The position numbers were made by a program, and so were the translations under genes. Below are positions 34,245 through 35,746 of a stretch of 53,028 nt of DNA, piece after piece. Every line of letters starts with the position of its first letter. Position 1 is the stretch's first letter. Under the pieces are notes generated by a model. It saw only the letters and a program-made list of their open reading frames with translations, ran no database searches and had not been told where the DNA came from. The DNA comes from Candidatus Nealsonbacteria bacterium (GTDB taxonomy: Bacteria > Patescibacteriota > Minisyncoccia > Minisyncoccales > RBG-13-42-11). The stretch covers positions 1-53,028 of the forward strand of contig JAPLXL010000006.1 in the NCBI GenBank assembly GCA_026396115.1, given 5' to 3'.

Positions 34245-35746
<1,502 letters not shown>

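Follow-up and report, generated by a model that had tools for sequence, protein, structure and literature searches.

A 16S rRNA gene without the anti-Shine-Dalgarno core in a Candidatus Nealsonbacteria genome whose start codons largely lack Shine-Dalgarno sites

The stretch of DNA analysed here (the window, 53,028 nucleotides) is contig C6 (53 kb) in its entirety, one of 8 contigs in an assembly of 792 kb that is rated 100% complete with 0.03% contamination and has a GC content of about 36%. It carries a 16S rRNA gene on the forward strand (34241–35746), the single copy in the assembly, which the cmscan alignment matches to the Rfam bacterial small-subunit model RF00177 from first to last position (model positions 1–1533, 1398 bits). 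Helix 45 is intact (35710–35733, +; model positions 1497–1520) and folds with the strands CAUGGGUAGC and GCUGUCCAUG around a GGAA loop. It is followed by a 13-nt 3′ tail, GAUCACUACAUUU (35734–35746, +), in which the anti-Shine-Dalgarno (anti-SD) core CCUCC is replaced by CUACA. The usual bacterial 16S end, by comparison, is GAUCACCUCCUUU. Relative to the tail of the Rfam model, GAUcACCUCCUUu, there are three substitutions within the CCUCC core, no insertions or deletions, and no change in length. The anti-SD core is absent from the 16S tail. The first-pass annotation had reported a 16S end without CCUCC, which the tail and the Rfam alignment bear out, and had also stated correctly that CCTCC does not occur within 60 nt 3′ of the 16S end; its coordinates for the feature (35733–35746) cover the tail but begin one base early, since 35733 is the final base of helix 45.

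The gene is a stand-alone unit unlinked to the 23S gene, which lies on another contig (C3:26702–30481). Upstream of it, a promoter-like site (33957–33984, +), recognized by consensus match only, consists of TTGACA, a 16-nt spacer and TAAAAT and agrees with the consensus at 11 of 12 positions. The leader and trailer contain the two strands of a predicted pre-16S processing helix, the 5′ strand (34209–34233, +) spanning 25 nt with 92% complementarity to the 3′ strand (35848–35872, +), where UCGGRACAACUYUAAG is kept across the order. Closer to the gene, the tail segment CACUACAUUUCUAAUUU and the adjoining downstream sequence form a predicted precursor hairpin (35737–35773, +; inverted repeat I3, 17 nt, 88% complementary), with its 3′ arm at 35757–35773; folds of this genome and its relatives place the same hairpin in same-family genomes. 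Two covarying trailer hairpins follow (35773–35847, +), for which RNAalifold on 13 relatives found compensatory changes in 17 of 23 pairs, while an Rfam E-value scan of the 16S trailer returned nothing near any gathering score and no family match. The trailer hairpins and the leader–trailer helix are conserved across the order despite the unlinking of 16S from 23S. Further downstream, a giant 4910-aa ORF (36966–51698, +) with 13 FG-GAP repeats and right-handed beta-helix regions probably encodes a surface protein; the GC content of its middle part (about 40–48 kb) is 0.42–0.48, above that of the rest of the contig.

An unusual tail of this kind could be an artefact if the 16S end were truncated or wrongly assembled, if the gene were a pseudogene, or if the contig were a contaminant, with a real rRNA that carries CCUCC. 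Misassembly of rRNA genes is common, the 8 contigs here form a metagenome-style draft, and one genome of the same class, G423, has two 16S ends, one of them canonical. However, the full-length model match and intact helix 45 argue against a damaged gene, as do the single copy and the completeness and low contamination of the assembly. In a public DNA run, possibly the run of the source sample itself, a 259-nt contig spans 35588–35846 with 0 differences, and neither a second rrs copy nor a corrected, CCTCC-bearing sequence, which the first-pass annotation had named as what would overturn its claim, was found in the assembly or in that contig. The conserved processing helix in the flanks, the recurrence of the tail among relatives and the independently observed scarcity of SD sites, both described below, all point the same way. 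An assembly error in the 16S end is very unlikely, and we regard the artefact explanation in all its forms as extremely improbable.

Two further candidates for a concealed anti-SD were rejected. A displaced downstream anti-SD would have to use the nearest CTCC (35810–35813), which takes part in the stem of a trailer hairpin and varies among relatives. An orphan 16S fragment carrying the anti-SD elsewhere in the genome was sought through CACCTCCT; the intergenic matches are reverse complements of SD sites, and one match lies inside the 23S gene. Contigs from public RNA runs (Logan), which are about 60 nt long and derive from mixed organisms, end anywhere in 35727–35757 and give only a weak hint of where the RNA stops; one low-depth RNA contig extends to 35826. 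The position of the mature 3′ end is inferred.

The start sites of the genome show the counterpart of this altered tail. A simple longest-ORF rule under translation table 11, which fits the genome, called 772 ORFs genome-wide, some of whose starts will be wrong, and 50 kb of E. coli passed through the same pipeline served as a positive control in which SD sites were detected. Genome-wide, about 95% of genes have no SD site. The frequency of G is 0.09–0.19 at −12 to −6 and never exceeds 0.19 upstream, whereas it reaches 0.35–0.42 at −11 to −7 in the E. coli control. Four-base SD motifs are not enriched at starts, occurring at 93 of 772 (12%) compared with 111 of 698 internal ATGs, against 48% in the control. 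Predicted pairing with ACCUCCUUA at −3.45 kcal/mol or lower is similarly uninformative of starts (22%, versus 36% of internal ATGs and 17% of shuffles), while the E. coli value is 68%. The GGAGG-like peak at −12 to −6 in most genes that canonical SD:anti-SD initiation entails was not found. Within the window contig, a 5-mer SD motif at −18 to −5 precedes only two of 40 ORFs, and the second of these is a false ORF inside the 16S gene. The earlier claim that genes in the window lack SD motifs, with a single true exception, is therefore sustained and extends to the genome; the hybridisation profiles that the first-pass annotation had suggested computing revealed no general peak for either the canonical or the observed tail.

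What the start sites do share is an open, A/U-rich setting. A accounts for 0.50 or more of the bases from −6 to −3, and U for 0.54 at −1. GC content drops from 0.36 to 0.26 at the start codon, and the mean predicted folding energy of 40-nt segments changes from −4.4 to −2.2 kcal/mol there, which makes the start codon the site of weakest predicted structure.

The anti-SD might have been replaced rather than lost: a co-evolved variant SD, a new motif upstream of genes, would pair with the altered tail or with a longer 3′ end. The tail CACUACAUUU is kept across several families despite 16S identities of 80–94%, suggesting constraint, and the profile of pairing energy with the observed tail dips in windows whose first base is at −4 to −2. 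This dip, however, is the AUG start codon itself pairing with the CAU of the tail. At −3.45 kcal/mol, pairing of the observed tail with the region from −20 to −1 occurs at 14.9% of starts, below the 19.6% of internal ATGs and 22.2% of shuffles. The base at −1 is mostly U, where pairing would need A, and tails vary widely across the order although start contexts are alike. The precursor hairpin at 35737–35773 may account for the conservation of the tail, and no co-evolved variant pair is known from the 128 organisms of this type compiled previously (Amin et al., PMC6107228). A variant SD is thus a very improbable explanation, and we continue with loss of the anti-SD without replacement.

Leaderless initiation could contribute to start selection. 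A TAWAAT hexamer, resembling a −10 element, peaks at −12 relative to the ATG across the genome-wide start contexts, and summed over −15 to −12 it accounts for 10.6% of genes with an upstream gap of more than 60 nt. This suggests that among promoter-proximal genes about 10% look leaderless. Leaderless initiation as the main mode would place a −10 hexamer about 7 nt before the ATG in most promoter-proximal genes, which is not the observed pattern; it is a minority mode at most.

A small set of genes, about 4–6% of the total and mostly on contig C7, carries perfect AAAGGAGGUGA sites. GGAGG stands at canonical spacing before 30 genes, compared with 3 occurrences at random internal ATGs, and a typical site, AAAGGAGGTGA with a 6–9 nt spacer to the ATG, is the exact complement of the canonical 16S end. 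Contig C7 holds 26 of the 32 strongest sites, and the 5-mer SD motif is found at 13.6% of its genes versus 3% elsewhere. Misbinning of this contig was considered and rejected: the sole tRNA-Met, Asp, Tyr and Trp genes of the genome are located there, with no duplicates, and the same-family genome G023 has the same kind of SD-bearing minority. In the window, the sole true SD-bearing gene (33004–33853, +) has GGAGGTG at 33004–33010 and its ATG at 33023, and encodes a 276-aa protein with no Pfam family. It starts 93 nt after a tRNA-Thr(UGU) gene (32856–32928), whose neighbourhood may be an insertion hotspot.

Compositional and comparative features set these genes apart. Reciprocal best hits in G023 exist for 7 of 48 SD-bearing genes but for 369 of the 724 others (Fisher p = 7e-7), and relative to other accessory genes the SD-bearing ones have atypical codon usage (p = 1e-6) and higher GC3 (p = 5e-5). 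The gene at 33023 falls in this genome-wide class of SD-bearing, codon-atypical accessory genes; its description as foreign in composition, made earlier for a start given as 33020, thus holds and generalizes across the genome. Members of the class include three radical-SAM enzymes, a short-chain dehydrogenase, a sigma factor that is additional to the existing complement, a CsgG-like protein, thymidine kinase (tdk) and uracil phosphoribosyltransferase (upp), for the last two of which a search of 24 same-family genomes gave no match. The SD-bearing genes of G023, likewise an anti-SD-less genome, number 35 and form a set different from this one. Because they are accessory, codon-atypical and seldom common to a relative, the SD-bearing genes are most likely recent imports from SD-using donors. 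A search of species-representative genomes for the donor of upp gave nearest sequences about 50% identical, from Desulfobacterales, Clostridia and Chloroflexota, and no donor could be named. On C7, an island of about 55–77 kb (loci L034 and L035) contains SD-bearing genes for an acyltransferase, a short-chain dehydrogenase and three radical-SAM proteins (one RNHCP plus SPASM), together with a CxxCxxCC protein, the extra 284-aa sigma-70 factor and a cupin; this island may represent a biosynthetic cluster acquired by import.

In each of two anti-SD-less genomes, 30 GGAGG sites are intact and correctly spaced. Such preservation, together with the roughly 50% identity of upp, would fit very recent import, yet it leaves room for some retained function. 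One way in which the remaining sites could function is suggested by a structured RNA outside the window (contig C2:65288–65468, locus L228; z = −9.0). Without variation across 9 genomes of the family and 21 from elsewhere in the class, its hairpin loop reads AUCCCUCCUU, so that 30 show CCCUCCU; it is unchanged in lineages whose ribosomes have lost that sequence. The invariance of the loop suggests that an element complementary to GGAGG is still under selection in these genomes. The loop of the present genome reads GAUCACUCCUUU; a single substitution separates it from the family consensus, and origin as a copy of the 16S end was rejected for that reason. In this genome the small RNA is followed by a 77-aa ORF that has a strong SD site.

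In such a scheme, an SD site would mark an mRNA as foreign and the small RNA would act on the marked messages, silencing imports or, less likely, lending an anti-SD in trans. The strongly structured fold, the invariant loop and the intact spacing of the sites speak for this reading. Against it, the RNA is present in anti-SD-retaining genomes (G151, G185, G206, G252, G265 and G272) and in anti-SD-less ones (G165, G202 and G225) alike; because it occurs with both tail types, it is older than the anti-SD loss and is no replacement or compensation for it. After GGAGG, 14 of 30 sites in one of the two genomes and 15 of 30 in the other continue with T, consistent with a 16S tail, while G, which would suit the loop CCCUCC, follows in just 1 of 30 and 4 of 30. 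The SD-bearing genes also look recently imported. We consider recognition of the sites by the small RNA unlikely, though less remote than either an artefact or a variant SD, and retain the view of the sites as unread relics of import.

The altered tail is not confined to this genome. Alignment of relatives' 16S 3′ ends, a comparison the first-pass annotation had recommended, first showed CCUCC to be missing from 14 of 14 relatives. An order sample of 121 genomes, 67 of which have a 16S 3′ end, then gave CCUCC absent in 65 of these 67; one of the other two keeps CACCUCC and one has CAUCUCC. The commonest tail of the order is (C/U)UACAUUU, and the form found here recurs in several other families. 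Relatives have genomes of 0.3–1.5 Mb and insertions in their 16S genes, and because their 16S identity to this genome is just 78–94%, the anti-SD loss must be old.

Across the class (301 genomes, 143 with a 16S 3′ end, tail classes counted by hand), 63 tails are canonical, 11 near-canonical (CAUCUCC or AACUCC) and 68 without CCUCC, and one genome has two ends. The anti-SD-less tails are diverse, for example GGAUUAUUUACU, GGAACAAUUC and GGAUCACUUCUUAUC, and intermediates occur; to judge from these sequences, the variety looks like repeated decay and not one event. The genome with two ends is G423 (C2:172192–172244 and C6:260–312): one end lacks the anti-SD, and the other, whose tail is canonical and whose helix 45 is typical of bacteria outside CPR, is probably on a contaminating contig.

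The loss is closely tied to the ribosomal protein uL1. In the class sample, uL1 was detected in 53 of 301 genomes; the tail is canonical in 30 of the 31 uL1-positive genomes that have one, and uL1 is missing from 67 of 68 anti-SD-less genomes. The present genome, although rated 100% complete, gave no match to uL1 (PF00687), whereas all 14 control genomes matched. Searches of this genome also found neither bS21 (PF01165) nor Era, the assembly GTPase that reads GAUCACCUCC (PMC10582724), while a 383-aa protein with several S1 domains, YbeY and KsgA are kept. As a correlate of anti-SD loss, bS21 was rejected: about 38 of 68 anti-SD-less genomes match versus 63% overall, with no association in a hand count that used a short model with many borderline matches. 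The order of this organism fits the uL1-lacking part of the CPR class that matches the published description of Parcubacteria.

Two genomes that retain the anti-SD bear on the order of events. G321 (52% GC, no uL1) and G258 (34% GC, uL1 present) both have a canonical tail; a G peak is absent from each, and 4-mer SD motifs precede 11.7% and 7.6% of their genes, respectively. Because they keep the tail yet are equally poor in SD sites, SD non-use probably preceded decay of the tail. To judge from these two anti-SD-retaining genomes, SD-independent initiation seems to be the norm of the class.

Taken together, these observations make it highly probable that an ancient loss of the anti-SD lies behind the tail seen here, that translation begins at SD-free, A/U-rich starts, and that the SD sites on imported genes go unread. 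Three substitutions have removed the anti-SD core from an otherwise intact 13-nt tail, in a change that is ancient and nearly order-wide. SD use was probably dropped before the tail changed, after which the anti-SD would have decayed under relaxed selection in several lineages. Ribosomes of this kind would not dock mRNAs through SD:anti-SD pairing; starts are most likely chosen through the A/U-rich, poorly structured surroundings of the AUG and the A-rich context at −6 to −3, which would leave the AUG region open to 30S subunits and their multi-domain S1 protein. Some mRNAs, a minority, are probably leaderless. The remaining perfect SD sites would have been inherited from SD-using donors with the imported genes that carry them, and would not be read by these ribosomes.

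Bacterial translation initiation has a universal core that seldom changes, and loss of the anti-SD is among the few such changes; the clade of this genome is probably the largest in which it has occurred. The apparent sequence of events, in which the whole class gave up SD use before repeated decay of the 16S tail, gives the change an order. There are practical consequences as well: a canonical SD site in such genomes could serve as a simple marker of recently imported genes, and gene callers built on ribosome-binding-site models will misplace starts. A question that follows is what the small RNA with the CCCUCCU loop does in cells that have lost this sequence from their ribosomes.

Anti-SD loss outside CPR has been reported for 128 taxids, mostly Bacteroidetes and Tenericutes, together with Carsonella (Amin et al. 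2018, PMC6107228). The earlier statement that such loss is rare is therefore accurate among bacteria overall but fails for this order, where it is the rule, and for this class, about half of which is affected. Among other bacteria that lack an anti-SD are Chryseobacterium, Elizabethkingia, Riemerella, Blattabacterium, some Mycoplasma and Carsonella (Lim et al. 2012; PMC6107228). These share with the present genome a 13-nt tail without CCUCC, the lack of a recognisable SD and a phylogenetic clustering of cases. They belong to other phyla and represent independent losses, however, whereas here the loss is order-wide, with 16S identity down to 78%, and affects about half a class.

In Flavobacterium johnsoniae, initiation reportedly relies on an A-rich, Kozak-like context, with the anti-SD said to be sequestered by ribosomal proteins. 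Initiation of this Bacteroidota type resembles the present case in that most genes are SD-less, with A-rich positions at about −3 to −6 and −11 and low structure at the start. The Bacteroidota, in contrast, keep both CCUCC and bS21, and this genome has neither, which places it outside that type. Mammalian mitochondrial 12S rRNA likewise lacks an anti-SD and works in a reduced ribosome from which bacterial ribosomal proteins have been lost (PMC10582724, PMC9297842). The mRNAs of the organelle are mostly leaderless and depend on dedicated protein factors, whereas most mRNAs here probably have leaders.

The closest parallel lies within the Parcubacteria, in just 48% of which an anti-SD motif was detected, with loss reported for a subgroup lacking uL1 (Tsurumaki et al. 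2022, RNA 28:1041, PMC9297842). The present genome agrees with that subgroup in having no CCUCCU after helix 45, no uL1 and a small genome, and in the 16S insertions of its relatives. The proportions agree as well, with a canonical tail in 44% of our class sample compared with their 48%, and in both cases the loss is nested among uL1-lacking genomes (PMC9297842). The published account differs in treating the matter in one paragraph, without start-site analysis (PMC9297842). Our analysis thus adds a genome to a known, briefly described group and provides new detail on its translation initiation. What is new beyond the earlier account (PMC9297842) is the non-use of SD sites in anti-SD-retaining members, the SD-bearing imports, the anatomy of the tail and trailer, and the lack of association with bS21.
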